Positions 29,213 through 44,454 of a stretch of 64,000 nucleotides of DNA are shown here, piece by piece. The notes below the pieces were generated by a model. It did not search any database and was not told the DNA's origin. It saw only the letters and a program-made list of their open reading frames with translations. Source of the DNA: Phycisphaeraceae bacterium (GTDB lineage Bacteria; Planctomycetota; Phycisphaerae; Phycisphaerales; SM1A02); NCBI GenBank assembly GCA_019636735.1, contig JAHBWY010000005.1:28117-92116 (forward strand), in the 5' to 3' direction. Positions within the stretch are counted from its first letter, which is position 1, and the number at the start of each line of letters is the position of its first letter. Made by a program: the position numbers and the translations under genes.

Positions 29213-30448
29213 GTGGGCCGATCAACGAGCGCATCCGAAGCAGCGCTCGCGAGTCTGGACGCGGCGCCTTGCTGCCTGCGCTGCGGGTATCCGATCGCGA
29301 CGACCTCCGAATCGCCGGCATGTTCCGAGTGCGGTGAGAGCACGGAGCGATCGCGTAAGGCATGGCGCGAAATGTGGATTCCGGGCGGCCGACGCGAGCG
29401 GCTGGCTCGCTCGCTCGTCCTGATCGCGACCTGCTCCGGAGCTCTCGCCGCCAGTTGGTCGCTGCAGACGCTGCTTCGACTCGAGGTGCTCGGGCCCAGT
29501 TCGGTGACGCCGGGGCCGTTCGGCTTGATCGCGCCGGTCGGTGCGGTGCTCAGGACGGGCCTCGTGATCACACTCATCCCACTCAACATCGTCGCGGCAT
29601 GCATCTGGTGGCGCATCGGGAGTCGGCCGCCGCTGCGGAGACGCGCCGCGAAGGGCTCTCTGCTCATCGTCGCCATGCTCGTCTGGGGATTCTGCACGCT
29701 GCTTCTGATCACACTGCTCGTCGGGGGGACCGTTGAGTCGCTTGATCGGCAGATGCAGACCATTCCCGAGTCGCTCGTGCTCGCGGCCACGCTGGCCGCA
29801 CAGTTCGCGATCTACCCGTGGCCGATGGCGCTCGCGGCGCGGGGGCTTCGAGCCGATCGCGACATCCCGTTCTGGCGCCGAGTCACCGCTCCGTGCGGAG
29901 TCGCAGGCCATGCGCTGCTCATCATCTGCGCCTGGTGCTTCGTGTCCGACGCAATCCTCCTGTTCGAGATGGAACGGGTCTTCGGCGCGATACTCATCCC
30001 GCCCTGGCTTCACTGGCTGATCCTGAAGACCTCGACGCTGCTCTGGAACGGCGGCGTGCCGCTCGCGCTCGCCTTCGTCGCGGGGGCGTCACTCGTGTCC
30101 CTCGCTCAAAGTGCGCAGGCGTTCGGCATCATGCCGTTGCTGAGGCGAACCTCGAGGACTCGCACCATCGTCGCGGCCATGCTCGTGACGATCTCCCTGC
30201 TCTCGATCGTGTGGTTCGGCTGCCTTGTAACCTGCATCCGGTTTGCCGGATTCACCGCGACGGGCGAACCGCAGGCGGATCGGGCTCGCGCCTTCATCGA
30301 GTCGCTGCTCGCCGACCCATTCTCACTGGCGCAGTTGGTCCTGCTTCCCCTGGTCATTCCCGCGGCGTGGATCGCGTGCTCGTGGTGGGCGCGGCGGCTT
30401 GCCTATTCGCCGATGTCCTCCGCCCAGAGGTCGGGCTTCTCGCGCTGA
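29213..30448 (+). CDS. Polytopic membrane protein with N-terminal zinc-ribbon (hypothetical)
   Basis: CCLRCGYPIATTSESPACSECGES (CxxC...CxxC) followed by about 9 hydrophobic helices. Its last 46 nt overlap the convergent deaminase gene. Its 3' ~150 nt recur at about 39385-39519 and 42797-42931. Confidence 0.6.
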   Translation: MGRSTSASEAALASLDAAPCCLRCGYPIATTSESPACSECGESTERSRKAWREMWIPGGRRERLARSLVLIATCSGALAASWSLQTLLRLEVLGPSSVTPGPFGLIAPVGAVLRTGLVITLIPLNIVAACIWWRIGSRPPLRRRAAKGSLLIVAMLVWGFCTLLLITLLVGGTVESLDRQMQTIPESLVLAATLAAQFAIYPWPMALAARGLRADRDIPFWRRVTAPCGVAGHALLIICAWCFVSDAILLFEMERVFGAILIPPWLHWLILKTSTLLWNGGVPLALAFVAGASLVSLAQSAQAFGIMPLLRRTSRTRTIVAAMLVTISLLSIVWFGCLVTCIRFAGFTATGEPQADRARAFIESLLADPFSLAQLVLLPLVIPAAWIACSWWARRLAYSPMSSAQRSGFSR

Positions 30449-30615
30449 AGGCGCTCCATCAGTGCCACGCAGCGCTCGTCGTTCAGCAGGCGCAGCTCGA
30501 CGCCCTCGCGCCTCATCCACTCCTCCGCGCCGAGATAGGTTCGATGCTCGCCGATCACCACGCGCGGGATCCTGAAGAGGATCGCGGTCCCCGAACACAT
30601 GGGACACGGTGAAAG
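30403..30615 (-). pseudogene. Cytosine deaminase copy 1, C-terminal fragment (split by IS66-family insertion)
   Basis: Encodes ...CPMCSGTAILFRIPRVVIGEHRTYLGAEEWMRREGVELRLLNDERCVALMERLQREKPDLWAEDIGE. Collinear with the intact copy 39474..39950 up to the IS junction at 30615/30616. Confidence 0.9.
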
Positions 30616-30632
30616 GTGTCCGTCCCGCGAAC

Positions 30633-32204
30633 CTTTCAATTACCCACATCTTTGGCCAGACAGTAACCGAGGTGGATGTCGGTCAATCTCGCCATGCCGC
30701 GCCATAGGACCATGTTTCCCGGCGGCGCATCGCGGGCCCGGTTCAGATAGCCACCGAGTCGAGCGAGCCTCGTCAGGAAGTTGCCTACCGTCTTCTTTCT
30801 TGAGCCGTCGTTGACCGGGACGAGGCGCTCGAGCAGGTTGATCTCTCTGGAGGTTCGCAGCACCAGCTTCACCGGGAGGTTCGGAGCGCGGTTCATCATC
30901 GTCAGCCACAGCACACGCCATGCCAGAATGCACATGATCGCACTGGCTGACCAGTCGCTCGGCAGTCCGCAGCCCGAGTCCTCGGCCCGACATCCTGACT
31001 TGAGCACCTTTGTGGAATGTCTCGATCTTCCAGCGTAAAAGCGCGTACCACCGAGCTTTTCGATCGCATCGGCCTTCTTCGATCGGATCGAAAGATTGGT
31101 CACGAGCTTCCAGTCGTTCGTCGCGCGGCCCTTAAGCACGCCCCGTTCCTTCGCGTGGATCACACTCAGCACCATGGTTCCAAAGGCTTCTCCTTCCTGA
31201 TGGGCGGGCACATTCTCGATCTGGTGGTACTTCAGCTCCAGCACTGCAAGCCTGACGGCGGCCCTTGTCGTCCTGACCTCGAGGCGATAAAGACAGCCCC
31301 TCACGCGCCGTTCGTCCATCGCGTTGGCCACGGCGCCTGCCGTCCTCCACGCGACGATCGACGCAAGTGCGGAACACAAACTTCTTCGTCCCCAGCGACG
31401 CGCATTCGCTGAACAACTCATATAGATGTCGCCTCCCGGTCGCCGATGTGGATGCAGCGAGCGGCGTCACCGATGTTCGCGGTCGATTGACGCACATTTT
31501 CGCCAGCGGATGCTCTCCTTCAGCTCAATCGGGATGCGAGTGGTGTTGACCGAATGCGTACCCGCGTCGAGACCTCTGCCCTTGGCCGCGTTGGTGCCTT
31601 GAAACCCCTTGCGCTGTCCAGAGCTTGATCGCCGAGACCGAGGGGCACGCCGTCAGTGGTGACGATGAGACTCGAGTGCATGAGGATGCCGCAGACAGTG
31701 TGCATTCGCTGGCGACCCTCTCTCATCCTTGTGACTCATGGCCACCCTGTTATGACACCAATCGCGAAAGTGCTCGCTCACGGTGAATGAGAACTCGGTC
31801 GTGTCGTGCAGTGCAAGGACCCGACCATCGACAAGCTGCCGACACGCCCGCGTGGCCTGCATGTGCCCGGCCAGGATCTCTGCCTCGCTCACACGCTTGT
31901 TGTCAAGAAAGCGATACGCGGCCTTGGTGCTGGCCCAATCACCGCACGCCAGCGGCAGTGACTGGCCGCTTCCTTGAGAGCTGCTCCATGAGTAGACCGA
32001 ACCGCCCAGCCAGTCGGGCATCGGCAAAGCGGCAGCCAGAAGCAAGCTCCTGATTGATCCACGGTCCCATGGCCGCGACTCCATCCGTTAAAAGCGATGC
32101 CATCCATGGCACGTTACTCCCCAGTGATCGGCATGACCAGTCCGTGCCGCAATAACCCAACCCTGTTCAGCGAACCAACAGACAAAGATGTGGGTAATTG
32201 AAAG
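30633..32204 (-). mobile_element. IS4-family (Tn5/IS50-like) element with decayed transposase, nested in the IS66 left end
   Basis: Perfect 22-bp terminal inverted repeats CTTTCAATTACCCACATCTTTG (30633-30654 and reverse complement at 32183-32204). 9-10 bp target duplication CCCGCGAAC(C) at 30624-30633 and 32205-32214. Confidence 0.85.
30636..32084 (-). pseudogene. IS4-family transposase, frameshifted in several places
   Basis: Tn5-like segments are spread over different frames: WASTKAAYRFLDNKRVS...LALHDTTEFSF (31653..32084), GILMHSSLIVTTDGVPLGLGDQ (31520..31726), ...LYELFSECASLG (31132..31497), KVLKSGCRAED / LRTAERLV / ILAWRVLWLTMMNR and LARLGGYLNR (30636..31421, 30640..30993). Confidence 0.8.
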
Positions 32205-32223
32205 CCCGCGAACCGCGATGGGG

Positions 32224-33822
32224 TCACTCTGAATCGGCCTGACGGCGTTGCCACTCATCGGGCAGCCAGTGATCAAGCTCTTCAGCCGGGGTCTTGGGCA
32301 GGTTCACAAGCAACTGCGTGAGGTAGACCTGTGGGTCGACGCCGTGGCGCCGACACGAGCTCGTGAGGCTCGAGAGGATCGCCGCCGTCTCGCCGCCGCA
32401 CGGACTGCCGACGATGAGCGAGTTCTTGCGGTTGAGCGCTTGACGCTTCATCTCGCGTTCGCTCGCGTTGTTGTCGATCGGGACTTCGGAGTCGTTCAGG
32501 AACACCGTCAGCTCGCTCCACTGGTTGAGCGCGTACTGCACCGCGCCCGCCATCGGGTGCTTGGGCAGCAGCACACCCTTCCAGTGCTCGAGCCGCCCCC
32601 GGATCATCTCCACGATCGGCCCGGACCTGTCCCGCCGGACTTCGGCGCGCGCGTCCGGGGTCGCCTCGCGGATCGATCGCTCGACCGCGAAGAGCGCATC
32701 CATGAGCGTCACCGCTTCGCGTGCGATTCCCGGCTCGCTCTTCTCGAGGTCGACGAACTTCCGCCGCGCATGCGCCCAGCATCCGGCGCGCGTGATCCCG
32801 TTGCCGGCCACGATCCCGTCGTAGCCGCCGTAAGCATCCGCCACGAGAGTCCCGCAGAAGTCCTTGAGGAACTTCGTCGGACCGTCTCTCGCCCGGCTCG
32901 GCGTGAAGTCGAACACCGTGTACGGATGCGAGTCGTCACCGAGGTAGACCCACATTCGCGCTTGACGCGTCTTCTCCTTCTCCAGGAGCGGCATCACCGT
33001 GTCATCGGTCCCGATCACGCGCGACGAGCGCACGCGATCGGCCATGCGCCGGTAGATCGGCATGGCGATCTCGGCGACATCGCGGCACCAGGTGGAGAGC
33101 GTCGATCGTGAGAGATCCAGGCCGTTGCGGCTGAAGATGTTTTCAAGTCTGTACAGCGGCAGGTAATCCGCGAACTTGCTCGTGACCACGAAGGCGAGCA
33201 GTCCGGGGCCGGCCATGCCCTTGTCGATCGCGGACGCGTCCTTCCGGGGCGCGGTCTCGACCTGGCCGCCGAGTCCCTCGCGATCGCAGTCGCGGCAGGC
33301 GTAGGTGTGGCGGCGATGGTGCCAGCGCTCGAAGTGGCCGGGGATGAACTCGACCTGCCAGCTTTCCTCGCATCCGATGCGGGTGCGCATCTGGCCGCAG
33401 CACTTGCAGGGCTTCTCGGCGTCGGGGAGATCATGCTCGACGGTGCGGACGGGCAGGTGCTCGAGGTCGGCGATGCGGCGGCGGCCGTGAGCCCCGGAAC
33501 GCTTCGCGTCGAGGCGACGCGCGTCGGCGCGGTCATCATCGGCAGCGCTCACCTCCGTCGGGAGCTCGAGCGGCCGCGCCTCGAGCTGCGTGGCGAACTC
33601 CAGCAGCAACTGGCCGAGCTCGACCACGGTCGACAGCCGATCCGCGCGCGGTCCGTAGAGACGCTTGCACAGCTTCAGAAGTTGCGCTTCGAGCCAGGCG
33701 ATCTTTGCGTCGCGATGCGCGAGCGACGCATCCTTCTCCGCGACATGAGACATCAGCATCGCGCAGAGCGCCTTCAGGGCATCGACATCTTCGGGAAGCT
33801 CGATCGCGGCCGCGTCGTCCAT
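32224..33822 (-). CDS. tnpC: IS66-family transposase TnpC
   Basis: 532 aa. N-terminal leucine-zipper region, zinc-finger CKCCGQMRTRIG...YACRDCD, DDE core with ...IGTDDTVMPLL... and ...AGCWAHARRKF... Confidence 0.9.
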   Translation of the reverse strand: MDDAAAIELPEDVDALKALCAMLMSHVAEKDASLAHRDAKIAWLEAQLLKLCKRLYGPRADRLSTVVELGQLLLEFATQLEARPLELPTEVSAADDDRADARRLDAKRSGAHGRRRIADLEHLPVRTVEHDLPDAEKPCKCCGQMRTRIGCEESWQVEFIPGHFERWHHRRHTYACRDCDREGLGGQVETAPRKDASAIDKGMAGPGLLAFVVTSKFADYLPLYRLENIFSRNGLDLSRSTLSTWCRDVAEIAMPIYRRMADRVRSSRVIGTDDTVMPLLEKEKTRQARMWVYLGDDSHPYTVFDFTPSRARDGPTKFLKDFCGTLVADAYGGYDGIVAGNGITRAGCWAHARRKFVDLEKSEPGIAREAVTLMDALFAVERSIREATPDARAEVRRDRSGPIVEMIRGRLEHWKGVLLPKHPMAGAVQYALNQWSELTVFLNDSEVPIDNNASEREMKRQALNRKNSLIVGSPCGGETAAILSSLTSSCRRHGVDPQVYLTQLLVNLPKTPAEELDHWLPDEWQRRQADSE

Positions 33823-33867
33823 GACGACATCCTCTCCGCGCCAGGCCCCGGCGCGGATGCAGGGAAA

Positions 33868-34237
33868 TCACGAACTTCGTGCGAATCGCTTCACGCGCTT
33901 CAGGCTCCGCAGGTCGACGCCGTCGAGCAGCATCGCCAGCTCGCTCGCGCGCAGCTCGATCGATGCACCTTCGTCGGCGCGAGGCAGACGGAAGGTGCCC
34001 GCCTCGAGCCGCTTGTACCAGAGCGCGTAGCCGTCGCGATCCCAGTAGAGAATCTTGAGGCGATCGCCTCCGCGCGAACGGAAGACGAAGAGGTGGCCGC
34101 TGCGAGGGTCCTGGCCGATCACTGACTGCGCCATCTCCGCGAGCCGATCGAAGCCGCGGCGCATGTCGGCGGGCGTCGTCGCCAGCCAGATGCGTGGCGC
34201 GCCTCGATCGAGCTGCGCGAGCGACGGTAGCGAGATC
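33868..34237 (-). pseudogene. tnpB: IS66 accessory protein TnpB, separated from its ATG by the IS256 insertion
   Basis: ...IWLATTPADMRRGFDRLAEMAQSVIGQDPRSGHLFVFRSRGGDRLKILYWDRDGYALWYKRLEAGTFRLP... The original ATG-ATC-TCG start now lies at 35702-35694, on the far side of the IS256 element. Confidence 0.8.
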
Positions 34238-35694
34238 GGTAAGGTTCGGAAGATTGCGCAGATTTGAAAAAGCAGCTCCCGCGCTGGAAGGTGTTGGTGT
34301 GTTGGAACAACCCCTTTCCAGAGGAGAGCTGCATGGACAGCGTAGCGAGCGGATCGACGGAAGTCGCGGAGTGCGCGACGGAGTCGTTGAAAGCGGCGGT
34401 GACGGTGGACGCGGAGAAGGTGCGAAGCCATCTGGACGAGATGGTGCGTTCGACGGTCGAGCAGACTCTGAACGCGATGCTGGAGGTGGAGGCGGACCAG
34501 GCGTGCGGGGCTGGTCGTTACGAGTGTTCGCCGGATCGTCTGACACTCGAGCGGGAGCTACGAGCGACGCTGGAGACGAAGGCGGGCTCGGTGAAGCCTG
34601 CTGTCCCGCGGCTTCGAGAAAGCTGCCGCTCGAGTCGATGATCATCGAGCGGTATCGTCGTCGGGAGATTTTTCGGTGGAGGAGCGCTGGCGGAGATAAA
34701 ATTCTGGCGGGCGTGAGCAGTGTCGGGTGGAGGACATCACGGAGCGCTGTGGGGATCGCGGGTGAGCCGCGAGCACGGTGAGCGGTCTGCCGCAGAAGGT
34801 ACGGCCAGATCGAGTCGTAGCGCAGCCGTCGGACCGAGGGGCGAACACGCGCACGTACCTGGACGGATCTGGGCTGAAGCGGAGCTGGGGCGGGGAGGTG
34901 AAGAGCGTGGCGGTGCTGGTGGCGATCGGGGTGAATCAGGAGGGCTTCCGCGAGATCCTTGGAGGGCGGAGGGGACGAAGGAGGACACGGAGAGCTGGCG
35001 CTCGTTCCTTCGGCATTTGAAGGAGCGCGGCCTGAGGGGTGTTCGGCTGGTGGTGAGCGACAAGTGCCTCGGGGGCTGGTCGAGGGCGTTGGGAGTTCTT
35101 CCCCGAGTAGCGTAATGGCAGCGATGCGTGGTGCACTTCTATCGCAATGATGACAGTGGTGCCAAAGGGTCGGGTGCAGGAGGCCGTGGCGATGCTGAAG
35201 ACGATCCACGCCCAGGAGGACGCGCGGAGCGCGGAGGAGAAGTCGAAGGATCGCGCAGAAGCTCGAGCTGCTTCGGCTGGACGAAGGCAGCGGAGCTCGT
35301 ACGTCGGCGTGCTGGAGACGCTGTCGTGGCCATGTCGTTCCCGGGAGCACTGGGCGCAGTCTTCGGACGAACAACCCGCTCGAGCGTCTGAATCGCGAGA
35401 TCCGCCGTCGGACTCGGGTGGTGGGATTTTCCCGGACGGGTCAGTCGGGCGCGATGCTGGTGGCGGCCCGGCTTCGTCACATGTCGGCGACGAAGTGGGG
35501 CTTGAGGCGGTACATGGACATGAGTCGATTGCGGGAGCTCGATGCGTCCCGCGCGGAGTCATCGGCCGCAGCGGCGTAGCTGCGGCCCCACGCTGGCAAG
35601 GCTGCGCCCCTCTTGATGGGGGCTCCGCCTTGCCAGCGATCACCTTCCCACGGAGGCTGCTTGATCAATTGTGCGCAACTTGACGGACGCTACC
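34238..35694 (+). mobile_element. IS256-family element with heavily frameshifted transposase, nested at the IS66 tnpA/tnpB junction
   Basis: Imperfect 30-bp terminal inverted repeats (GGTAAGGTTCGGAAGATTGCGCAGATTTGA versus GGTAGCGTCCGTCAAGTTGCGCACAATTGA, 21/30 match). 8-bp target duplication GCGAGATC at 34230-34237 and 35695-35702. IS256-type transposase pieces lie in at least 5 frame segments (EQTLNAMLEVEADQACGAGRYE; IIERYRRRE; LKRSWGGEVKSVAVLVAIGVNQEGFREILG; WRSFLRHLKERGLRGVRLVVSDKCLG; VHFYRN; AMLKTIHAQED). Confidence 0.85.
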
Positions 35695-35700
35695 GCGAGA

Positions 35701-36030
35701 TCATGACGCGGCCTCGGCGTCGAGACGCTCGAGCCGAACGACGAACCGTGCGACCCACGCCTCGTCGGCGCCGGATGCGATCTCGATCCGTCGTCCACCG
35801 GCAATCGTGATCACAACGCCGGGACCCGAGATCGAAGGTGGCGCCGCGAGCTCGACGAAGGACGGGTGATCATCGCGTCGATGCGACGCCGAGCCATCGC
35901 CTGCGAGCATGCGTCGCCATCGATGGAACGAGCTCGGCGACACCCCGTGCACCCTGCAGAACTCGACGATGCTCAGTCCGCTCCGACGCTGCTCGCGCAG
36001 CAGCCGGCGCCAATGCGCGTGATCATGCAT
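35701..36030 (-). CDS. tnpA: IS66 accessory protein TnpA
   Basis: 109 aa. HTH-like ...WRRLLREQRRSGLSIVEFCRVHGVSPSSFHRWRR..., typical of IS66 orf1. Confidence 0.85.
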   Translation of the reverse strand: MHDHAHWRRLLREQRRSGLSIVEFCRVHGVSPSSFHRWRRMLAGDGSASHRRDDHPSFVELAAPPSISGPGVVITIAGGRRIEIASGADEAWVARFVVRLERLDAEAAS

Positions 36031-36088
36031 CCACGAAGTGTCGACGCCGGCGGCCCGTCATGGAAGACGGGTTTCGCGGGACGGACGC

Positions 36089-36360
36089 GGTGAAAGCGTG
36101 CTCACCAGTGTGAGCGACCGCCAGTCGCGCCGGCGCCCGGCGCGGCGGATGCAGTCAACCTCCGCATGCGCCGTGGGGTCGCCGCTCTGCACGCGCTGGT
36201 TGTGGCCTGCCGCCACGACGCGCCCGCTCGGGCCGAGCAGCGCCGAGCCGATGGGAATGCCGCCCTCGCGCCAGCTCTTCTCCGCCTGCTCGATCGCCGC
36301 GAGCTCAGTGCGAGCCGTGGTGATCGGTGATCCCGACCTGACTTGTTGCTCGACTTTCAC
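36089..36360 (-). pseudogene. Cytosine deaminase copy 1, N-terminal fragment
   Basis: MKVEQQVRSGSPITTARTELAAIEQAEKSWREGGIPIGSALLGPSGRVVAAGHNQRVQSGDPTAHAEVDCIRRAGRRRDWRSLTLVSTLSP, interrupted exactly before the CPMC zinc ligands. Confidence 0.9.
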
Positions 36361-36440
36361 ATCGCATCGTGGCGCTCCGTCAGGATGGCCGTTTCAGCGT
36401 CCTGCGAGCATCACGGTTGAGCGAGTCCCTTACCGCGCGG

Positions 36441-37244
36441 TCACCCCCGCCTCCGGCCGCGAGTGCGCAGTGCGACCAGCGCCAGGAGCAAGGCGGCGCT
36501 GGGCGCGGGAACTGCCTGCGCCCGAAGAAGGAATACACCGTTACCTCCTAGTGCTGGGAATGAGTTGAGGCTCTGAATGACACCCGGAAACTGCGCATTC
36601 CAGGTCCCGCTTGGTGCGGTAGAAAACCACGAGCGATCAAGCGTCGGAACGCTGGTATCAATCGGCGCTGCAAATCCATTACTAACTGTTACGCTTACGC
36701 CCACAACAATATTGGCGAATGCGCTCACATCTGTCGGCGCCACGGTAACCGATTGAAACACATTCGACTTGATCGCGCCGGGATCGATCAGGGCACTCCA
36801 ACTCCCCAGATGGGTCATGCCGTTTGCGGGATCACCATCATTGTCGCCCCACAGATGGACATTGAAGGGAGCGCCGGCGCTGACACCCGCCGAGGAGGTA
36901 CTGCCCGCGAGGCCAAATGTGACCTGGATACTGGTGATGAGCGAGCCGCTCAGATTGACCGCGAAGACATTCATCCACGCAGCATCTGCAGTGTAACCAC
37001 TGAAGCCTCCTGCGGTGTTCGCCACGCCGTCATCCCACTGATAGGCGAAGTCGGCCGAAGCCGTCGCCGACAGAAGAGCAAGGCCGATCGATGCGATCGA
37101 CGCCGCTACGATGTGCCCGGTCGCCACATCAGACACGCACCGTTCTCGCGCGGCCTTTGCATTCATGGTGTCCGACTTAGGCTTGTGATCGCTGGCGGCT
37201 CGCCCCTGCCATGTTGTTGGCGCCTGGATCTGTGTCATCATCAC
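36441..37244 (-). CDS. PEP-CTERM-like anchored secreted protein, variant A
   Basis: C-terminus AVPAPSAALLLALVALRTRGRRRG (P-x-P motif + TM helix + Arg cluster). Signal-peptide-like IVAASIASIGLALLSATASA. Its start overlaps the stop of the upstream HAF gene (TGATG). Confidence 0.65.
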   Translation of the reverse strand: MMMTQIQAPTTWQGRAASDHKPKSDTMNAKAARERCVSDVATGHIVAASIASIGLALLSATASADFAYQWDDGVANTAGGFSGYTADAAWMNVFAVNLSGSLITSIQVTFGLAGSTSSAGVSAGAPFNVHLWGDNDGDPANGMTHLGSWSALIDPGAIKSNVFQSVTVAPTDVSAFANIVVGVSVTVSNGFAAPIDTSVPTLDRSWFSTAPSGTWNAQFPGVIQSLNSFPALGGNGVFLLRAQAVPAPSAALLLALVALRTRGRRRG

Positions 37245-39112
37245 TCACCTTCCTGTTGCTGGCTCATTACAAGCAGCGCGAGTGCCACCGCGGCCTCGAG
37301 CTGCGCCTTGCTCTTTCCCGCCGACCATTGGACGAACTGCTCGTCCGTTTCGAATCCAAGAGCGGCGAGGAACGAGTCCAGGCGATCCTGGGCGCTCCCG
37401 ATGCTCTCCACTCCTGTACGCAGGAATTCCGACGACTCACAGCAGATCGGATCGATTGTGAGCAGATCGTCACCGCTGCTCCAGTTCCCGATCAGGACCG
37501 CCAGGTCGTAGCCGTCGATCTTGACCTCTCCCTCAGGCGGTGTCGGGCCCAGGTCGAATGGACAGGCCTCGCTGCCTACTGAGCCCCAATGTCCAAGGAG
37601 CGCCGCCAGATCGGAACCGTCGATCCGATCATTCCCGTCGAAGTCCATCAGGTGGGCGAGCTTGTAGAGCGTGGTTCCTGCGATCACGAGCACCATGCCG
37701 CGATCGTTGACGGACGCCGCGAATGGGAGCTCGCCCTCGATCGTGCAGGCTCTGGTCACGGTGGCAAGATCAACGGCGCACCAGTCCGTTTCGAGGTCCT
37801 CCCCGCCCGGGTGCTCCCAGATGACGGCATGCGGACCGCCGCCAGCAGACTCCGACTCCTCTTCCTCCTCGACAAGTGGAACGGGTGAACGGAAGCCGGT
37901 GACTCGGATCAAGCCGTCGGCGCCGATCGAGATCGACTCCGCGCCGCTGGCATCGTTCGGCTCTTCGAGGAATGTTCCCAGATTGAGGTAAGGAAGGTCG
38001 TCGCTTCCAAGCGACCAGATCCACGCGTTGCGAACGCAGTCTTGGAAGGCAGGCGGAGCCTGCTGGCCAACGCCGACGGCCAGGCATCGCCCTTCTTCGC
38101 CAAGCGCAATTGCACGAGCGATGTTCTCGAAGTACAGCCAGTCGGACTCGCCGTCGGGCTGGTGCGGGTATGGCAGCAGACCGCCGCTGGGAGTCGAACC
38201 CATTGACCAGCCGTACGAATCCCGGGTTCGGCGGTCGGACGGGCAGTCGGCAAGGCTGAACTCCGCAGTGCACGGCCCAGGTTGCGGCGTCCTCTGCACG
38301 AACCCGACGGCCGCGGTGCCGGTCCCGGTGATCGCATACGGTCGGGCCATCGTGGGCAGCTCCCAATCTGATGGAAGCTCCTCTCCAAAATCACTGGACG
38401 ACCCAGTCCATTGAATGGCAAAGGGAAGGGATCCCCCTTCGCTATCCGAGCAGAACGAGAATGTCCCCACCACGATCGGCTCGAACCCGTCGGAGAGCGC
38501 CCACGCCAACCCGGTCCGAGGATCCGGCTCGCTTGCCGGCGATGATTGAGGATGCGGCGGCAAGTAGGGCGAAAGGTCGAAGACATCGTGCCCTGTTGAA
38601 CTGCTGCTCTCGCGCCACCAGATGCACGGCAGCGCGTTGCTCAATGCGGCGGTGGCGCCGGGATCGGGCAGCACGCCACCGACGACACTCCCGACATCGT
38701 TGATGCCCAGGGCCACTGACGCATCGGCGCCGCTTGGATGAAGCGAATGCAGCCCGGCGGAGAGCCCGTAGAGATCACGCGGAAGCCAGAGAAATGCCTC
38801 GGTCGTCTGACTCGAGCCTTCACCAACGACCCTCGATCCGGCGACGGCGCCATCGTCATTCGAGACAACGCGCGTGGTGATCGAATGGCGCCCCGAAATG
38901 AGCACGCTCGTCCCACTGCGAATCGAAGTCACAATGGGCACTGCCCGGTAGCGCTCGCAAGTCTGCGGCATTCCTCGCGCCCCAGCGACCGCCAGCAGGT
39001 GAATCGCTGCGAGCGCGGTCAGAGTCGGCGCGAGCCGACGGACGACGGACGACGGACGACGGACGACGGACGACGGACGACGGACGACGGACGACGGACT
39101 CAAGTTGTTCAT
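37241..39112 (-). CDS. HAF-repeat extracellular protein with dockerin-like EF-hand pair, copy A (in frame)
   Basis: GGAGGAG Shine-Dalgarno at 39116-39122, ATG at 39112, (PSSVVRR)x3, signal core LAPTLTALAAIHLLAVAGARG. HAF-like repeats (TEAFLWLP...ALGINDVGSVVGG). C-terminal DFDGNDRIDGSDLAALLGHWG and KIDGYDLAVLIGNWS. Confidence 0.75.
   Translation of the reverse strand: MNNLSPSSVVRRPSSVVRRPSSVVRRLAPTLTALAAIHLLAVAGARGMPQTCERYRAVPIVTSIRSGTSVLISGRHSITTRVVSNDDGAVAGSRVVGEGSSQTTEAFLWLPRDLYGLSAGLHSLHPSGADASVALGINDVGSVVGGVLPDPGATAALSNALPCIWWRESSSSTGHDVFDLSPYLPPHPQSSPASEPDPRTGLAWALSDGFEPIVVGTFSFCSDSEGGSLPFAIQWTGSSSDFGEELPSDWELPTMARPYAITGTGTAAVGFVQRTPQPGPCTAEFSLADCPSDRRTRDSYGWSMGSTPSGGLLPYPHQPDGESDWLYFENIARAIALGEEGRCLAVGVGQQAPPAFQDCVRNAWIWSLGSDDLPYLNLGTFLEEPNDASGAESISIGADGLIRVTGFRSPVPLVEEEEESESAGGGPHAVIWEHPGGEDLETDWCAVDLATVTRACTIEGELPFAASVNDRGMVLVIAGTTLYKLAHLMDFDGNDRIDGSDLAALLGHWGSVGSEACPFDLGPTPPEGEVKIDGYDLAVLIGNWSSGDDLLTIDPICCESSEFLRTGVESIGSAQDRLDSFLAALGFETDEQFVQWSAGKSKAQLEAAVALALLVMSQQQEGE
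39036..39098 (-). repeat. Heptanucleotide microsatellite (TCCGTCG)x9 within the 5' coding region
   Basis: Nine perfect tandem units counted base by base (plus-strand CGACGGA, 39036-39098). Confidence 0.95.
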
Positions 39113-39473
39113 CGACTCCTCCGCAGGTGAACCCGAGGTGGACCACTCGGAGAGAACCGGGTGGCCTGGATTTGCGGAAACCGGACTTGTTGGACTTTAC
39201 CGCCGTTCCGGAGCAGGTCAAGGCGCTGCGAGCAGATCTCGATGGAGCAGAATGGCATTTCCTGAGTGTTGAGGGGGCGGACGGTGGTCAAATGGGCCGT
39301 TGCAACGAGATCGCCGAGTTCCTTCGTTCCCAACACCCCAGCGTTCACCACGGCGTCGGCTCCCTGCTCACTCCCCTGCTCTCGGATCCCCCATCACTGG
39401 CGCAGTTGGTCCTGCTTCCCCTGGTCATTCCCGCGGCGTGGATCGCGTGCTCGTGGTGGGCGCGGCGGCTTGC

Positions 39474-39950
39474 CTACTCGCCGATGTCCTCGGCCCAGAG
39501 GTCGGGCTTCTCGCGCTGAAGGCGCTCCATCAGTGCCACACAGCGCTCGTCGTTCAACAGGCGCAGCTCAATGCCCTCGCGCCTCATCCACTCCTCCGCG
39601 CCGAGATAGGTGCGGTGCTCGCCGATCACCACGCGCGGGATCCTGAAGAGGATCGCGGTCCCCGAACACATGGGACACGGCGAGAGCGTGCTCACCAGCG
39701 TGAGCGACCGCCAGTCGCGCCGGCGCCCGGCGCGGCGGATGCAGTCAACCTCCGCATGCGCCGTGGGGTCGCCGCTCTGCACGCGCTGGTTGTGGCCTGC
39801 CGCCACGACGCGCCCGCTCGGGTCAAGCAGCGCCGAGCCGATGGGAATGCCGCCCTCGCGCCAGCTCTTCTCCGCCTGCTCGATCGCCGCGAGCCCAGTG
39901 CGAGCCGTGGTGATCGGTGATCCCGACCTGACTTGTTGCTCGACTTTCAC
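39474..39950 (-). CDS. Cytosine deaminase, yeast Fcy1-type (CMP/dCMP zinc-deaminase fold), copy 2, intact
   Basis: HAEVDCI...TLSPCPMCSG zinc motifs. The C-terminus NDERCVALMERLQREKPDLWAEDIGE closely parallels the Fcy1 C-terminus (...DDERCKKIMKQFIDERPQDWFEDIGE, quoted from memory). Confidence 0.8.
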   Translation of the reverse strand: MKVEQQVRSGSPITTARTGLAAIEQAEKSWREGGIPIGSALLDPSGRVVAAGHNQRVQSGDPTAHAEVDCIRRAGRRRDWRSLTLVSTLSPCPMCSGTAILFRIPRVVIGEHRTYLGAEEWMRREGIELRLLNDERCVALMERLQREKPDLWAEDIGE

Positions 39951-40030
39951 ATCGCATCGTGGCGCTCCGTCAGGATGGCCGTTTCAGCGTCCTGCGAGCA
40001 TCACGGTTGAGCGAAGCCCTTACCGGGCGG

Positions 40031-40696
40031 TCACCCCCGCCTTCGGCCGCGAGTGCGCAGTGCGACCAGCGCCAGGAGCAAGGCGGCGCTGGGCGCGGGA
40101 ACCGCGAAGCTCATGTACTCGATCATGCCGGCTACGGCGACTGTAAAGCCTTGAGGCGGCGGGGGCGGAATCAGTCGCACCCGGTCAAACGGCGTGACCG
40201 ACTGGAAGCCTACGAACACCGCCACTGCGTCATTGGGCGGCATTCCAAAGGGGATGTTGCTTGCAAAGATATCCCCGACGAGCGTATCGCCGAGGTAGAA
40301 CTCAACATGAACACCCATGTAGTTCAACGGCCGGGTGCCCCAGAACTTCAAGGGGGCTGCGAACTCCATGTTGATTTCGTAGATGCCTGGCGGCACGGGG
40401 TTCCATATGTCCTTACCCCCAATTGCCGGCTTCAGAGCCTGCGGATAGCCTGGATTCCACGCGTAGGCCGACCAGTCGTCCCCGTCGGTGAAACTCACGC
40501 CCTGCGGGGCCCATTGATTTGTTATAAGTGTGTTGGCCGGAACATCACCGAAATTGACCTGCGTGATGTTCGAGGCACCGCCAGCCGCCGACACCCACGC
40601 TGCTTTGTCAATGGTGTAGGACACGCCCGCCACGGCGTGCCCGGTCGTGACAGCGAACACGCACAGTACCGCCGCTCTCTGATCCTGTTTCATCAC
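40031..40696 (-). CDS. PEP-CTERM-like anchored secreted protein, variant B
   Basis: Same C-terminal AVPAPSAALLLALVALRTRGRRRG and same TGATG start overlap as variant A, but an unrelated 190-aa passenger (signal peptide AAVLCVFAVTTGHAVAG). Confidence 0.65.
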   Translation of the reverse strand: MMKQDQRAAVLCVFAVTTGHAVAGVSYTIDKAAWVSAAGGASNITQVNFGDVPANTLITNQWAPQGVSFTDGDDWSAYAWNPGYPQALKPAIGGKDIWNPVPPGIYEINMEFAAPLKFWGTRPLNYMGVHVEFYLGDTLVGDIFASNIPFGMPPNDAVAVFVGFQSVTPFDRVRLIPPPPPQGFTVAVAGMIEYMSFAVPAPSAALLLALVALRTRGRRRG

Positions 40697-42524
40697 TCAC
40701 CTTCCTGTTGCTGGCTCATTACAAGCAGCGCGAGTGCCACCGCGGCCTCGAGCTGCGCCTTGCTTTTTCCCGCCGACCATTGGACGAACTGCTCGTCCGT
40801 TTCGAATCCAAGAGCGGCGAGGAACGAGTCCAGGCGATCCTGGGCGCTCCCGATGCTCTCCACTCCTGTACGCAGGAATTCCGACGACTCACAGCAGATC
40901 GGATCGATTGTGAGCAGATCGTCACCGCTGCTCCAGTTCCCGATCAGGACCGCCAGGTCGTAGCCGTCGATCTTGACCTCTCCCTCGGGCGGTGTCGGGC
41001 CCAGGTCGAATGGACAGGCCTCGCTGCCTTCTGCACCCCACACTCCTAGCAACATTGCCAGATCTGACCCGTCAACCCGATCATTCCCGTCGAAGTCCAT
41101 CAGGTGGGCGAGCTTGTAGAGCGTGGTTCCTGCGATCACGAGCACCATGCCGCGATCGTTGACGGACGCCGCGAATGGGAGCTCGCCCTCGATCGTGCAG
41201 GCTCTGGTCACGGTGGCAAGATCAACGGCGCACCAGTCCGTTTCGAGGTCCTCCCCGCCCGGGTGCTCCCAGATGACGGCATGCGGACCGCCGCCAGCAG
41301 ACTCCGACTCCTCTTCCTCCTCGACAAGTGGAACGGGTGAACGGAAGCCGGCGACTCGGACGCTGTCGGGCGCCGATCGAGATCACCGATTCTTCCGCCG
41401 GCATCGCCCGATTTTTCGAGGAATGTACCCAGATTGAGGTAAGGCCGTCGCTTCCAAGCGACCAGATCCACGCGTTGCGAACGCAGTCTTGGAAGGCAGG
41501 CGGAGCCTGCTGGCCAACGCCGACGGCCAGGCATCGCCCTTCTTCGCCAAGCGCAATTGCACGAGCGATGTTCTCGAAGTACAGCCAGTCGGACTCGCCG
41601 TCGGGCTGGTGCGGGTATGGCAGCAGACCGCCGCTGGGAGTCGAACCCATTGACCAGCCGTACGAATCCCGGGTTCGGAGGAGTGTGGGGCAGTTGGGTT
41701 GTCCTAGCTCGGTCGAACACGGCCCAGGTTGCGGCGTCCTCTGCACGAACCCGACGGCCGCGGTGCCGGTCCCGGTGATCGCATACGGTCGGGCCATCGT
41801 GGGCAGCTCCCAATCTGATGGAAGCTCCTCTCCAAAATCACTGGACGACCCAGTCCATTGAATGGCAAAGGGAAGGGATCCCCCTTCGCTATCCGAGCAG
41901 AACGAGAATGTCCCCACCACGATCGGCTCGAACCCGTCGGAGAGCGCCCACGCCAACCCGGTCCGAGGATCCGGCTCGCTTGCCGGCGATGATTGAGGAT
42001 GCGGCGGCAAGTAGGGCGAAAGGTCGAAGAACTCGTGCCCTGTTGAACTGCTGCTCTCGCGCCACCAGATGCACGGCAGCGCGTTGCTCAATGCGGCGGT
42101 GGCGCCGGGATCGGGCAGCACGCCACCGACGACACTCCCGACATCGTTGATGCCCAGGGCCACTGACGCATCGGCGCCGCTTGGATGAAGCGAATGCAGC
42201 CCGGCGGAGAGCCCGTAGAGATCACGCGGAAGCCAGAGAAATGCCTCGGTCGTCTGACTCGAGCCTTCACCAACGACCCTCGATCCGGCGACGGCGCCAT
42301 CGTCATTCGAGACAACGCGCGTGGTGATCGAATGGCGCCCCGAAATGAGCACGCTCGTCCCACTGCGAATCGAAGTCACAATGGGCACTGCCCGGTAGCG
42401 CTCGCAAGTCTGCGGCATTCCTCGCGCCCCAGCGACCGCCAGCAGGTGAATCGCTGCGAGCGCGGTCAGAGTCGGCGCGAGCCGACGGACGACGGACGAC
42501 GGACGACGGAATCAAGTTGTTCAT
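40693..42524 (-). pseudogene. HAF-repeat/dockerin-like protein, copy B (out of frame at the leader, frameshifted internally)
   Basis: ATG 42524 opens only a 73-aa ORF. The body is split into 41222..42418 and 40693..41211, with at least 3 frame changes between about 41340 and 41460 relative to copy A. Elsewhere it is near-identical to copy A. Confidence 0.8.
42483..42510 (-). repeat. Heptanucleotide microsatellite (TCCGTCG)x4
   Basis: Four perfect units. This is 35 nt shorter than in copy A, which shifts the frame. Confidence 0.95.
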
Positions 42525-42885
42525 CGACTCCTCCGCAGGTGAACCCGAGGTGGACCACTCGGAGAGAACCGGGTGGCCTGGATTTGCGGAAACCGGACTT
42601 GTTGGACTTTACCGCCGTTCCGGAGCAGGTCAAGGCGCTGCGAGCAGATCTCGATGGAGCAGAATGGCATTTCCTGAGTGTTGAGGGGGCGGACGGTGGT
42701 CAAATGGGCCGTTGCAACGAGATCGCCGAGTTCCTTCGTTCCCAACACCCCAGCGTTCACCACGGCGTCGGCTCCCTGCTCACTCCCCTGCTCTCGGATC
42801 CCCCATCACTGGCGCAGTTGGTCCTGCTTCCCCTGGTCATTCCCGCGGCGTGGATCGCGTGCTCGTGGTGGACGCGGCGGCTTGC

Positions 42886-43355
42886 CTACTCGCCGATGTC
42901 CTCGGCCCAGAGGTCGGGCTTCTCGCGCTGAAGGCGCTCCATCAGTGCCACACAGCGCTCGTCGTTCAACAGGCGCAGCTCAATGCCCTCGCGCCTCATC
43001 CACTCCTCCGCGCCGAGATAGGTGCGGTGCTCGCCGATCACCACGCGCGGGATCCTGAAGAGGATCGCGGTCCCCGAACACATGGGACACGGCGAGAGCG
43101 TGCTCACCAGCGTGAGCGACCGCCAGTCGCGCCGGCGCCCGGCGCGGCGGATGCAGTCAACCTCCGCATGCGCCGTGGGGTCGCCGCTCTGCACGCGCTG
43201 GTTGTGGCCTGCCGCCACGACGCGCCCGCTCGGGCCGGGCAAGCCGCCGAGCCGATGGGAATGCCGCCTTCGAGCCAGCTCGTCTCCGCCTGCTCGATCG
43301 CCGCGTCGAGACCGGCGCGGATGGCGGCATCGGGAGGCCAGGCGGAGACGCTCAC
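42886..43355 (-). pseudogene. Cytosine deaminase copy 3 (frameshifted; divergent N-terminus)
   Basis: From PSGRVVAAGHNQ to the stop it is identical in protein sequence to copy 2 (ORF 42886..43242). The N-terminal part ...DAAIRAGLDAAIEQAETSWLEGGIPIGSA lies in another frame (ORF 43104..43472; candidate GTG at 43355). The junction near 43235-43245 has 10 nt where copy 2 has 8. Confidence 0.75.
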
Positions 43356-43389: not shown

Positions 43390-44454
43390 TCAAGATCCGC
43401 GGCGCGACGATCCGCTCGTGGCCGACCCTGCGGCAGCCCCCGCACCCGGGGCTTGATCAGCACTGGCGGCAATGGTGCGGCTCAGTCCATCCTCGAACGA
43501 GACGATCGGGCTGTAGTTGATGAGCGCCTTGGCCGCGCGGATGTCCGCCTCGCTGTCGCGCACATCGCCGCGCCGCATGGGATGAAAGACCCGTTCGGCC
43601 TTCGTGCCGACGCCACGCTCGATCGCCTCCAGCAGCTCAAGCAGCGAGAAGCGCCCGCCACAGCCGATGTTGACCACCTGGCCTTCAAGCGCCGATGCAG
43701 TCGTCGCCGCGCAGAGGTTCGCGTGCACCGCGTTCGCCACGAAGGTGAAGTCTCGCGTCTGCCTTCCATCGCCATAGATCTCGACCGGGGCACCTTCGCG
43801 CACGGCCTTGATCCAGCGCGGCACGACCGCCGCGTATGCCGAGTCATGCCGCTGCCGGGGACCGAAGATGTTGAAGTAGCGCAGCGAGACGGTCTCCAAG
43901 CCGTAGCAGATGGCCCATGCTCGGAGTGAGTGCTCGCCCGCCAGCTTCGTCATTGCGTAGGGTGACCGCGGATCGGGCCGCATGGTTTCGACCTTCGGCA
44001 GCGTTGGCGTATCGCCATAGGCGCTCGAACTCGCGGAGTAGACGACGCGCTTCACTCCATGCCGCCGCGCCGCCTGAAGCACGGCCACCGTGCCGTCGGC
44101 GTTGGCCGCCTGGAAGCGATCGGGGTTCTCCACGCTCGCCGGCACGCTGCCCAGCGCCGCAAGGTGAAAGACAACCTTCGCCCCGCCCATCGCTTCGTCG
44201 AGCGCCGAGAGGTCAAGAATGCTCGAGGCGAAGACGCGCACCCGGCTGGCCACCCGGGAGAGATTGACCTCGCGTCCGTTGGAGAAATCGTCGATCACGC
44301 TCACATCGGCGCCAAGCTCGACGAGCGCGTCGACCACATGCGATCCGATGAAGCCCGCGCCACCGGTCACGCAGACGCGCATGCCCGAGAGCGCCTTGCC
44401 GGAGTCATGAAGCAGGGAGGACCGGGTCGTGCTCGGCGGCGTGGTCATGGTCAT
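43390..44454 (-). CDS. NAD-dependent sugar-nucleotide epimerase/dehydratase (SDR family)
   Basis: MRVCVTGGAGFIGSHVVDAL..., catalytic YSASSSAYGD...K context; WbpP/TviC-like length. The start may instead be the Met at 44382, which would remove the overlap with the desaturase. Confidence 0.85.
   Translation of the reverse strand: MTMTTPPSTTRSSLLHDSGKALSGMRVCVTGGAGFIGSHVVDALVELGADVSVIDDFSNGREVNLSRVASRVRVFASSILDLSALDEAMGGAKVVFHLAALGSVPASVENPDRFQAANADGTVAVLQAARRHGVKRVVYSASSSAYGDTPTLPKVETMRPDPRSPYAMTKLAGEHSLRAWAICYGLETVSLRYFNIFGPRQRHDSAYAAVVPRWIKAVREGAPVEIYGDGRQTRDFTFVANAVHANLCAATTASALEGQVVNIGCGGRFSLLELLEAIERGVGTKAERVFHPMRRGDVRDSEADIRAAKALINYSPIVSFEDGLSRTIAASADQAPGAGAAAGSATSGSSRRGS

Follow-up and report, generated by a model that had tools for sequence, protein, structure and literature searches.

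A broken tandem copy of a HAF-like exoprotein gene in a planctomycete genome: probably a recently inactivated paralogue in a mosaic, putatively slippage-switched family

We analysed a 64,000-nucleotide (nt) stretch of DNA (the window) from the Phycisphaeraceae bacterium assembly GCA_019636735.1, corresponding to positions 28117-92116 of contig JAHBWY010000005.1 (C29) in a 3.43-Mb, 33-contig draft genome of ~65% G+C. The window carries two neighbouring copies, A and B, of a gene for a secreted protein with HAF-like and dockerin-like parts. Copy B is a pseudogene: its leader is out of frame, and a conserved block has lost 5 nt net. On the account that we favour, and consider probable, the two genes belong to a tandem family that is switched by repeat slippage and evolves by segmental recombination, copy B being a paralogue that was inactivated recently. 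The two copies are as follows.

Positions 37241-39112, minus strand: exoprotein copy A, intact, 623 amino acids (aa).
Positions 40693-42524, minus strand: exoprotein copy B, split, as judged from the list of open reading frames (ORFs) and the alignment to A.

Differences between the copies are few and strongly clustered. Positions 37238-39891 align with 40690-43305 at 95.9% identity by blastn, and a MAFFT global alignment confines nearly all differences to a few blocks. Outside the leader repeat tract and three dense patches the copies are ~99.7% identical (backbone divergence ~0.2-0.3%): there is one dinucleotide change, giving HDVFD in A (38584-38585) and HEFFD in B (42031-42032), and isolated differences are found only at 39460, 37976, 37900, 37535 and 37313. 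We compared the 70 substitutions in 2613 ungapped columns with 5000 permutations. The densest 50-nt window holds 19 substitutions (permutation mean 5.3, maximum 10), 72.5% of adjacent substitutions lie no more than 5 nt apart (12.7% expected), and the longest identical run, 478 nt, exceeds the permutation maximum of 433. An earlier reading of this DNA, made from its letters alone (the sequence-only reading), had described long identical tracts with sharply bounded patches, a description that both the alignment and the permutation test bear out; every difference that it listed (HDVFD versus HEFFD, a block of ~40 bp, a frameshifted segment and the first dockerin-like repeat) is visible in the alignment. 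It had also held that evenly spread substitutions would speak against patchwise exchange, and the distribution is strongly non-uniform. Its count of ~300 identical N-terminal residues needs trimming: the match from MPQTCERY is exact, but it extends for only 128 residues to the HD/HE site and then for ~100 more to patch 1.

The three patches are these.

Patch 1, minus strand: A1 at 38232-38270 versus B1 at 41679-41717; 19 of 39 bases differ, no indel.
Patch 2, minus strand: A2 at 37909-37998 versus B2 at 41361-41445; indels of -4, +1 and a further net -2, with ~25 substitutions; drawn more widely, 37900-37998 versus 41352-41445.
Patch 3, minus strand: A3 at 37578-37624 versus B3 at 41030-41076; 16 substitutions, no indel.

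Patches 1 and 3 retain length and frame while differing between A and B at 34-49% of bases. Patch 1 is a Cys-bounded loop that reads CSTELGQPNCPTLL in B1 and CTAEFSLADCPSDR in A1. Within it, the conserved Cys and Pro codons are altered at the wobble base alone, and the substitutions of the patch comprise 5 transitions and 14 transversions. Patch 3 is the first dockerin-like repeat (DRVDGSDLAMLLGVWGAEG in B3, DRIDGSDLAALLGHWGSVG in A3), where 11 of 18 codons differ, six synonymously (Gly, Ser, Ala, Leu, Leu, Gly) and five non-synonymously. In both patches the divergence between A and B is at least as large as that of each allele from outgroup genes over the same segments (35-57%). Such a signature would be expected from long divergence under purifying selection, with the patches later placed into a near-identical backbone. 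Because patches 1 and 3 are in frame and rich in synonymous changes, they point to recombination with a diverged homologue. Uneven divergence along a single array points the same way: two deaminase gene copies in the array, D1 and D2, differ by 2.6-3.4%, against 0.2-0.3% for the A/B backbone.

Patch 2 holds the lesion of copy B. The net loss of 5 nt places the last 172 codons of B in another frame. The affected block, WSLGSDDLPYLNLG..ASGAESISI..DGLIRV, is the most conserved of the family, being invariant among copy A and the homologues P0002 and P0003 in a three-sequence alignment. B2 is damaged but still recognisable as a homologue over three frames (PYLNLGTFLEKSGDAGGRIG, VISIGA and PDSVRVAG). 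Its indels are not homopolymer errors and sit among dense substitutions.

The front end of copy B is, by contrast with a promoterless cassette, that of a complete gene. Three further features bear on this point.

Positions 39036-39099, minus strand: heptamer tract of A, (GTCCGTC)x9, perfect, 63 nt, in frame.
Positions 42483-42510, minus strand: heptamer tract of B, four units, the first degenerate (TTCCGTC), out of frame.
Positions 42606-42633 (B) and 39194-39221 (A), minus strand: promoter-like TTGACC-16-TAAAGT, identical in the two copies and at the same distance from the ATG.

The 347 nt upstream of both ATGs are identical between A and B, and copy B retains its own ATG and its own repeat tract. 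The tracts differ by 35 nt, which puts the ATG at 42524 out of frame; the leader is OFF, as the sequence-only reading had said, through the presence of four heptamers rather than nine. Loss of one unit or gain of two would restore the leader frame. Copy B is read as three ORFs: the leader is at 42303-42524 (73 codons), the body starts from an internal ATG (41222-42418, 398 codons) and the C-terminal part occupies 40693-41211 (172 codons). For annotation, it should be treated as one pseudogene rather than as two genes. That the tract slips in living cells is a prediction from the repeat itself. Two distant homologues also have heptamers near their 5ʹ ends: in L011, TCGCTCG x4 directly follows the ATG, and in L012, TCACTCG x3.3 lies ~150 nt upstream of a broken gene. 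The repeat tract is thus conserved across the family.

Exact-protein look-ups identified four near-identical public contigs. Their haplotypes are given here beside those of the window; PEP-A and PEP-B are the anchored partner genes found downstream of copies A and B, respectively.

Window, copy A: A1-A2-A3, PEP-A, nine-unit tract in frame.
Window, copy B: B1-B2 (broken)-B3, PEP-B, four-unit tract out of frame.
L013 (ENA ERZ794913; metaSPAdes, 5.6 kb, 4x coverage): A1-A2-A3, PEP-B, four-unit tract; preceded by IS66 and the C-terminal part of D1.
L014 (ENA ERZ27240678; MEGAHIT k141, 4.45 kb): B1-A2-A3, PEP-B, with A-type HDVFD; followed by the N-terminal part of D1 and IS66.
L015 (Logan SRR12908344, k31; 1.8 kb): B1 (end only)-A2ʹ-B3, PEP-B, with B-type singletons at 37535 and 37313.
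L016 (Logan SRR2107179, k31; 1.5 kb): PEP-B, an intact deaminase gene and the start of the next HAF gene, i.e. the same junction in another sample.

Patch 2 is intact in L013, L014 and L015, and the lesion is seen solely in the source genome. In L015, A2ʹ is an intact patch 2 that carries B's synonymous T at 37976, and the reading frame stays open between the end of patch 1 and the stop codon, leaving the C-terminal 333 residues uninterrupted. B1 and B3 thus occur next to an intact patch 2 in other contigs, and hence appear to be alternative working alleles. Each patch seems to change as a unit on a constant backbone. The sequence-only reading had suggested a search for chimeric A/B combinations in relatives, and three of the near-identical contigs do carry other combinations. 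It had also suggested that a lack of recombinant haplotypes, together with further decay of B in relatives, would argue against gene conversion; what relatives show instead is B-type patches beside an intact patch 2, in L014 and L015. Four patch combinations occur among the five sequences, the additional ones coming from short-read metagenome contigs and involving no four-gamete violation. L015 has, in addition, a private run of three synonymous changes at 129-135 (38108-38114 in copy A of the window), where CGT GCA ATT has become CGC GCC ATC and Arg-Ala-Ile is kept; the run resembles what very short conversion from a diverged homologue would leave.

Which type of unit came first? In L011, the gene downstream of the distant homologue is 50% identical to PEP-B (E 2e-65), while PEP-A shares only the anchor with it. 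The partner in L012 is also of the PEP-B type, although both L012 genes are split. In P0002 the patch 1 loop reads CSIDIGLPNCP, which agrees with B1 at 7 of 11 positions and with A1 at 4 of 11. A PEP-B-type partner and a B1-like loop are thus found in homologues at 52-53% identity, which makes the B-type unit (B1, PEP-B) look ancestral and the A-type unit (A1, A3, PEP-A) derived. On this polarity the five haplotypes can be ordered as L015, L014, L013 and window A, with window B as a putative L015-like allele that gained the patch 2 lesion. The split pair in L012 (SRR28170335) lies at L012:264-2623, with pieces of the HAF homologue at 264-563 and 711-1925 and of the partner at 1922-2248 and 2369-2623; it suggests either repeated pseudogenisation of the gene pair or a poor contig.

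We propose the following course of events. Copy B would have been a complete paralogue in tandem, encoding a secreted HAF-like/dockerin-like protein and switched by slippage of the 7-nt repeat in its leader. It would have become a pseudogene recently, by contraction of the tract to four units and a single complex lesion in patch 2. B1 and B3 would be alternative working alleles of two variable segments, the Cys-bounded loop and the first dockerin-like repeat, acquired by segmental homologous recombination (gene conversion) with a diverged homologous sequence, and the backbone would have been kept nearly identical between the copies of the array. Recombination is the mechanism that we infer from features seen directly in the DNA, namely the anatomy of the two copies, the clustering and synonymous signature of their differences, the intact front end and the other combinations in public contigs.

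What could have supplied the patches? Searches of the whole 3.43-Mb assembly with blastn, tblastn and short words recovered A and B only, with no second copy of any patch. With blastn-short, all six patch alleles gave only chance matches of 12-22 nt, the best three of which did not grow on extension. The genome encodes ~50 dockerin-like modules, and we rejected ectopic conversion from these since no match exceeds 19 nt. Mutagenesis by a diversity-generating retroelement or by a deaminase was also rejected, given the mixture of transitions and transversions and the many synonymous changes. Separately, B1 (41679-41690) and B3 (41036-41047) each hold one arm of a perfect 12-nt inverted repeat. 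The arms read CCCCACACTCCT and AGGAGTGTGGGG on the gene strand, lie 643 nt apart and span 660 nt in all; both patches also contain the direct repeat GCTAGGA. The A-type patches share no more than 5 nt, against 12 in the B-type patches, and a match of at least 12 nt arose in 3 of 20000 shuffles, in a test chosen post hoc after the match had been seen. A coding inverton between these inverted repeats was considered and rejected, as in-silico inversion of the L015 segment gives a frame that stops after 42 codons.

Several points weigh against the account proposed here. The recombinant haplotypes are all taken from metagenome contigs that were assembled from short reads over a multi-copy repeat, and the identical stretches of 220-480 nt between patches exceed the k-mer length (k) of the assemblers, which permits chimeric paths. 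The combination in A2ʹ falls within 31 nt and is absent from both window copies, so L015 is no chimera of window A and window B as they stand. The objection is further weakened by L014: MEGAHIT would be expected to break at bubbles of <95% similarity, yet this contig crosses all blocks. The four-unit tract of L013 may reflect a longer array that collapsed at k=21. A collapsed tract equals the true length modulo 7 and is at least k, so that 21 or 28 nt are allowed, and we therefore do not count this tract as evidence of switching. No pair of blocks occurs in all four combinations, and for that reason exchange between A and B is undemonstrated, whereas replacement of patches is shown. The searches of the assembly yielded no donor for any patch, nor does the account explain how the patch 2 lesion came about. 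The patchwise gene conversion of the sequence-only reading is supported in so far as the non-uniform, synonymous-rich patches look like recombination, exchange between these two copies being no more than possible.

Could copy B instead be an unexpressed archive, from which patches are copied one way into the expressed copy A? The variable patches are indeed bounded by identical flanks, their alleles occur in several combinations in public contigs, and a non-expressible copy adjoins an expressed one. The silent cassettes of the pilE/pilS, vlsE/vls and tprK systems have no promoter or 5ʹ end and form banks of many donors. Copy B shares its promoter-like site, ATG and repeat tract with A, and it is the only extra copy, with no donor bank in the 3.43-Mb assembly; on these grounds the pilE/pilS or vlsE analogy of the sequence-only reading is not supported. 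B-type patches are found in contigs in which patch 2 is intact. The lesion of B, which is confined to the source genome and lies in a conserved block, would be harmful if copied, and the series of haplotypes requires no transfer from B to A. We consider a dedicated silent-donor system very unlikely. Copy B may act as a passive template for conversion into A; a programmed role as donor is speculative.

We give equally little credence to plain decay or local bursts of mutation, in which the patches would have arisen in place by error-prone repair or under relaxed selection, without recombination. Copy B is broken, patch 2 combines indels with radical changes in a conserved block, and the assembly searches returned no donor sequence, all of which this explanation accommodates. 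It fits poorly with patches 1 and 3, which preserve both length and frame and carry many synonymous changes, and with the recurrence of B1 and B3, base for base, in other samples where patch 2 is intact. The mixture of transitions and transversions (5 and 14 in patch 1) makes a deaminase-type process unlikely, and the remainder of B is almost undecayed (~0.3%). The sequence-only reading had offered a decaying duplicate as its alternative; copy B is indeed a pseudogene, but by way of one complex lesion and a contracted tract rather than by general decay. An assembly artefact, with the pair or the patch 2 lesion created from a mixture of strains and one or two intact genes in reality, is an improbable explanation too. 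In its favour, the draft genome comprises 33 contigs, public data contain near-identical strains that combine the patches differently, and the repeat units share long identical stretches. However, each unit has a partner gene of its own and flanks specific to it, all joined consistently across 7 kb within a 320-kb contig, L016 independently shows the junction from PEP-B through a deaminase gene to a HAF gene, and the indels in patch 2, lying among dense substitutions, are not of the homopolymer type. The L016 junction also implies that tandem arrays of at least two units exist beyond the source genome.

How does this locus compare with known systems? By analogy and not homology, it resembles a small opa-type family more than pilE/pilS. 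The opa genes of Neisseria form a phase-variable, multi-locus family of surface proteins (bioRxiv 10.64898/2026.02.02.703239). As in opa, the paralogues are complete and each has its own promoter (here a promoter-like site); an on/off coding repeat with a unit length not divisible by three lies in the leader region and differs in length between copies; short hypervariable segments sit in a conserved backbone; and near-identical paralogues occur within one genome, many of the opa copies being out of frame. The differences are considerable. There is no sequence relationship between the HAF-like/dockerin-like secreted protein and the Opa beta-barrel, the repeat unit is 7 nt here and CTCTT in opa, and there are only two copies, in tandem, each coupled to a downstream anchored partner gene. 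Furthermore, the host of the locus is a free-living planctomycete of the Phycisphaerae type, in which switching is predicted from the DNA sequence.

The pilE/pilS system of Neisseria, vlsE/vls of Borrelia and tprK of Treponema share with this locus variable segments between conserved flanks and a non-expressible copy beside an expressed one. They differ in that here there is a single second copy, whose full front end is identical to that of the expressed copy, and in that the variable patches also occur in contigs with an intact patch 2. Concerted evolution combined with pseudogenisation would likewise give a near-identical backbone in neighbouring copies, one of them frameshifted. Here, however, divergence is confined to three islands of 40-90 nt, at 34-49% of bases, and two of the three islands are alternative working alleles in other samples.

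Contingency loci with slippage switching and mosaic paralogues are a textbook feature of host-adapted pathogens. Here the same architecture occurs in an environmental planctomycete, in a family of secreted proteins that is almost orphan, and the public contigs hint at turnover of patches among close strains. If our account is correct, the locus would be a tractable example of fast diversification of a surface protein or exoprotein in a free-living bacterium. It would also point to what the protein pair encounters in its environment, with phage, predators and partners of the dockerin-like module as examples. A more elaborate and unlikely possibility is that the array is a combinatorial device, with heptamer switching, exchange of patches and of the partner gene by conversion, and disabled units kept as archives. 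This would amount to diversification resembling antigenic variation, for instance against phage or grazers, outside host-associated pathogens.

In the product of copy A, the leader has nine in-frame heptamers, and a hydrophobic stretch resembles a signal peptide. A HAF-like repeat lies at ~aa 85-150, a dockerin-like module occupies ~aa 490-545, and the C-terminal domain is helical. Neither Pfam nor NCBIfam assigns a significant family to copy A, PEP-A or PEP-B. At a permissive threshold, copy A has a single HAF repeat (TIGR02913) at 11.6 bits, below the cut-off of 22.65. HMMER was run exhaustively against 1.84 billion representative proteins, and in this search aa 85-150 proved homologous to the repeats of HAF-repeat proteins that score 122-223 bits on TIGR02913. 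The HAF label of the sequence-only reading thus misses the curated cut-off but has transitive support, and the product is best described as HAF-like, with one recognisable repeat. Similarly, the C-terminal module (~aa 477-620) recurs in proteins with near-threshold matches to dockerin type I (PF00404): copy A itself has no match, and relatives of the module score 17.5-21.9 bits against a cut-off of 22.9. Full-length relatives are very rare, being limited to P0002 (56% identity in the HMMER search, 53% by BLASTP) and the distant P0125 (33%). No relatives were found among JGI metagenome contigs or GTDB species representatives, 40 related genomes gave matches to the dockerin-like module but no full-length relative, and the C-terminal ORF of copy B had no match when used as a query. 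Two repeat-rich matches of the representative search, P0132 and P0152, were rejected as unrelated low-complexity proteins. A structure prediction for copy A from the three-sequence alignment had a mean predicted local distance difference test score (pLDDT) of 28.5 and was unusable.

Both exoprotein copies belong to a tandem array at 36083-43305, and all genes of the locus are on the minus strand. In order of transcription, an epimerase gene upstream of the array is followed by D3, HAF-B, PEP-B, D2, HAF-A, PEP-A and D1; those flanking the two exoprotein genes are listed here.

Positions 43390-44454, minus strand: epimerase gene.
Positions 42886-43305, minus strand: deaminase D3, with a 2-nt frameshift.
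Positions 40031-40696, minus strand: PEP-B, anchored partner gene, whose start overlaps the stop of copy B.
Positions 39474-39950, minus strand: deaminase D2, intact.
Positions 36441-37244, minus strand: PEP-A, anchored partner gene.
Split at 36083 by an IS66-based stack, with the remainder at 30323-30618, minus strand: deaminase D1.

PEP-A and PEP-B are unrelated apart from the shared anchor. PEP-B is still intact, and one residue away from its metagenome variants, despite the overlap of its start with the stop of the broken copy B. The intact deaminase of L016 (L016:627-1103, 158 aa) alternates between D1-type and D2-type sites, which reflects either real mosaicism or bubble popping at k=31.

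L013 and L014 also bear on the history of D1. The C-terminal half of the IS66-split deaminase (L013:2249-2560) is of the D1 type at 8 of 8 diagnostic sites and is followed by the HAF gene, unlike in the window, where the C-terminal half is followed by the body of a membrane gene. Either the units of that strain differ in order or number, or the contig is misjoined in a stretch of 83 identical nt. At the end of this 4x contig (L013:5551-5602), 16 mismatches in the last 50 nt abolish the conserved deaminase motif GHNQRVQSGD; these 50 nt are probably low-quality sequence, and the contig needs to be treated with care. In both contigs (L013:1-2258 and L014:3160-4452), IS66 occupies the same deaminase site as it does in the window at 30619-36082. 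Since both lack the elements nested in the window copy at 34238-35694 and 30634-32204, these nested elements are younger than the IS66 insertion.

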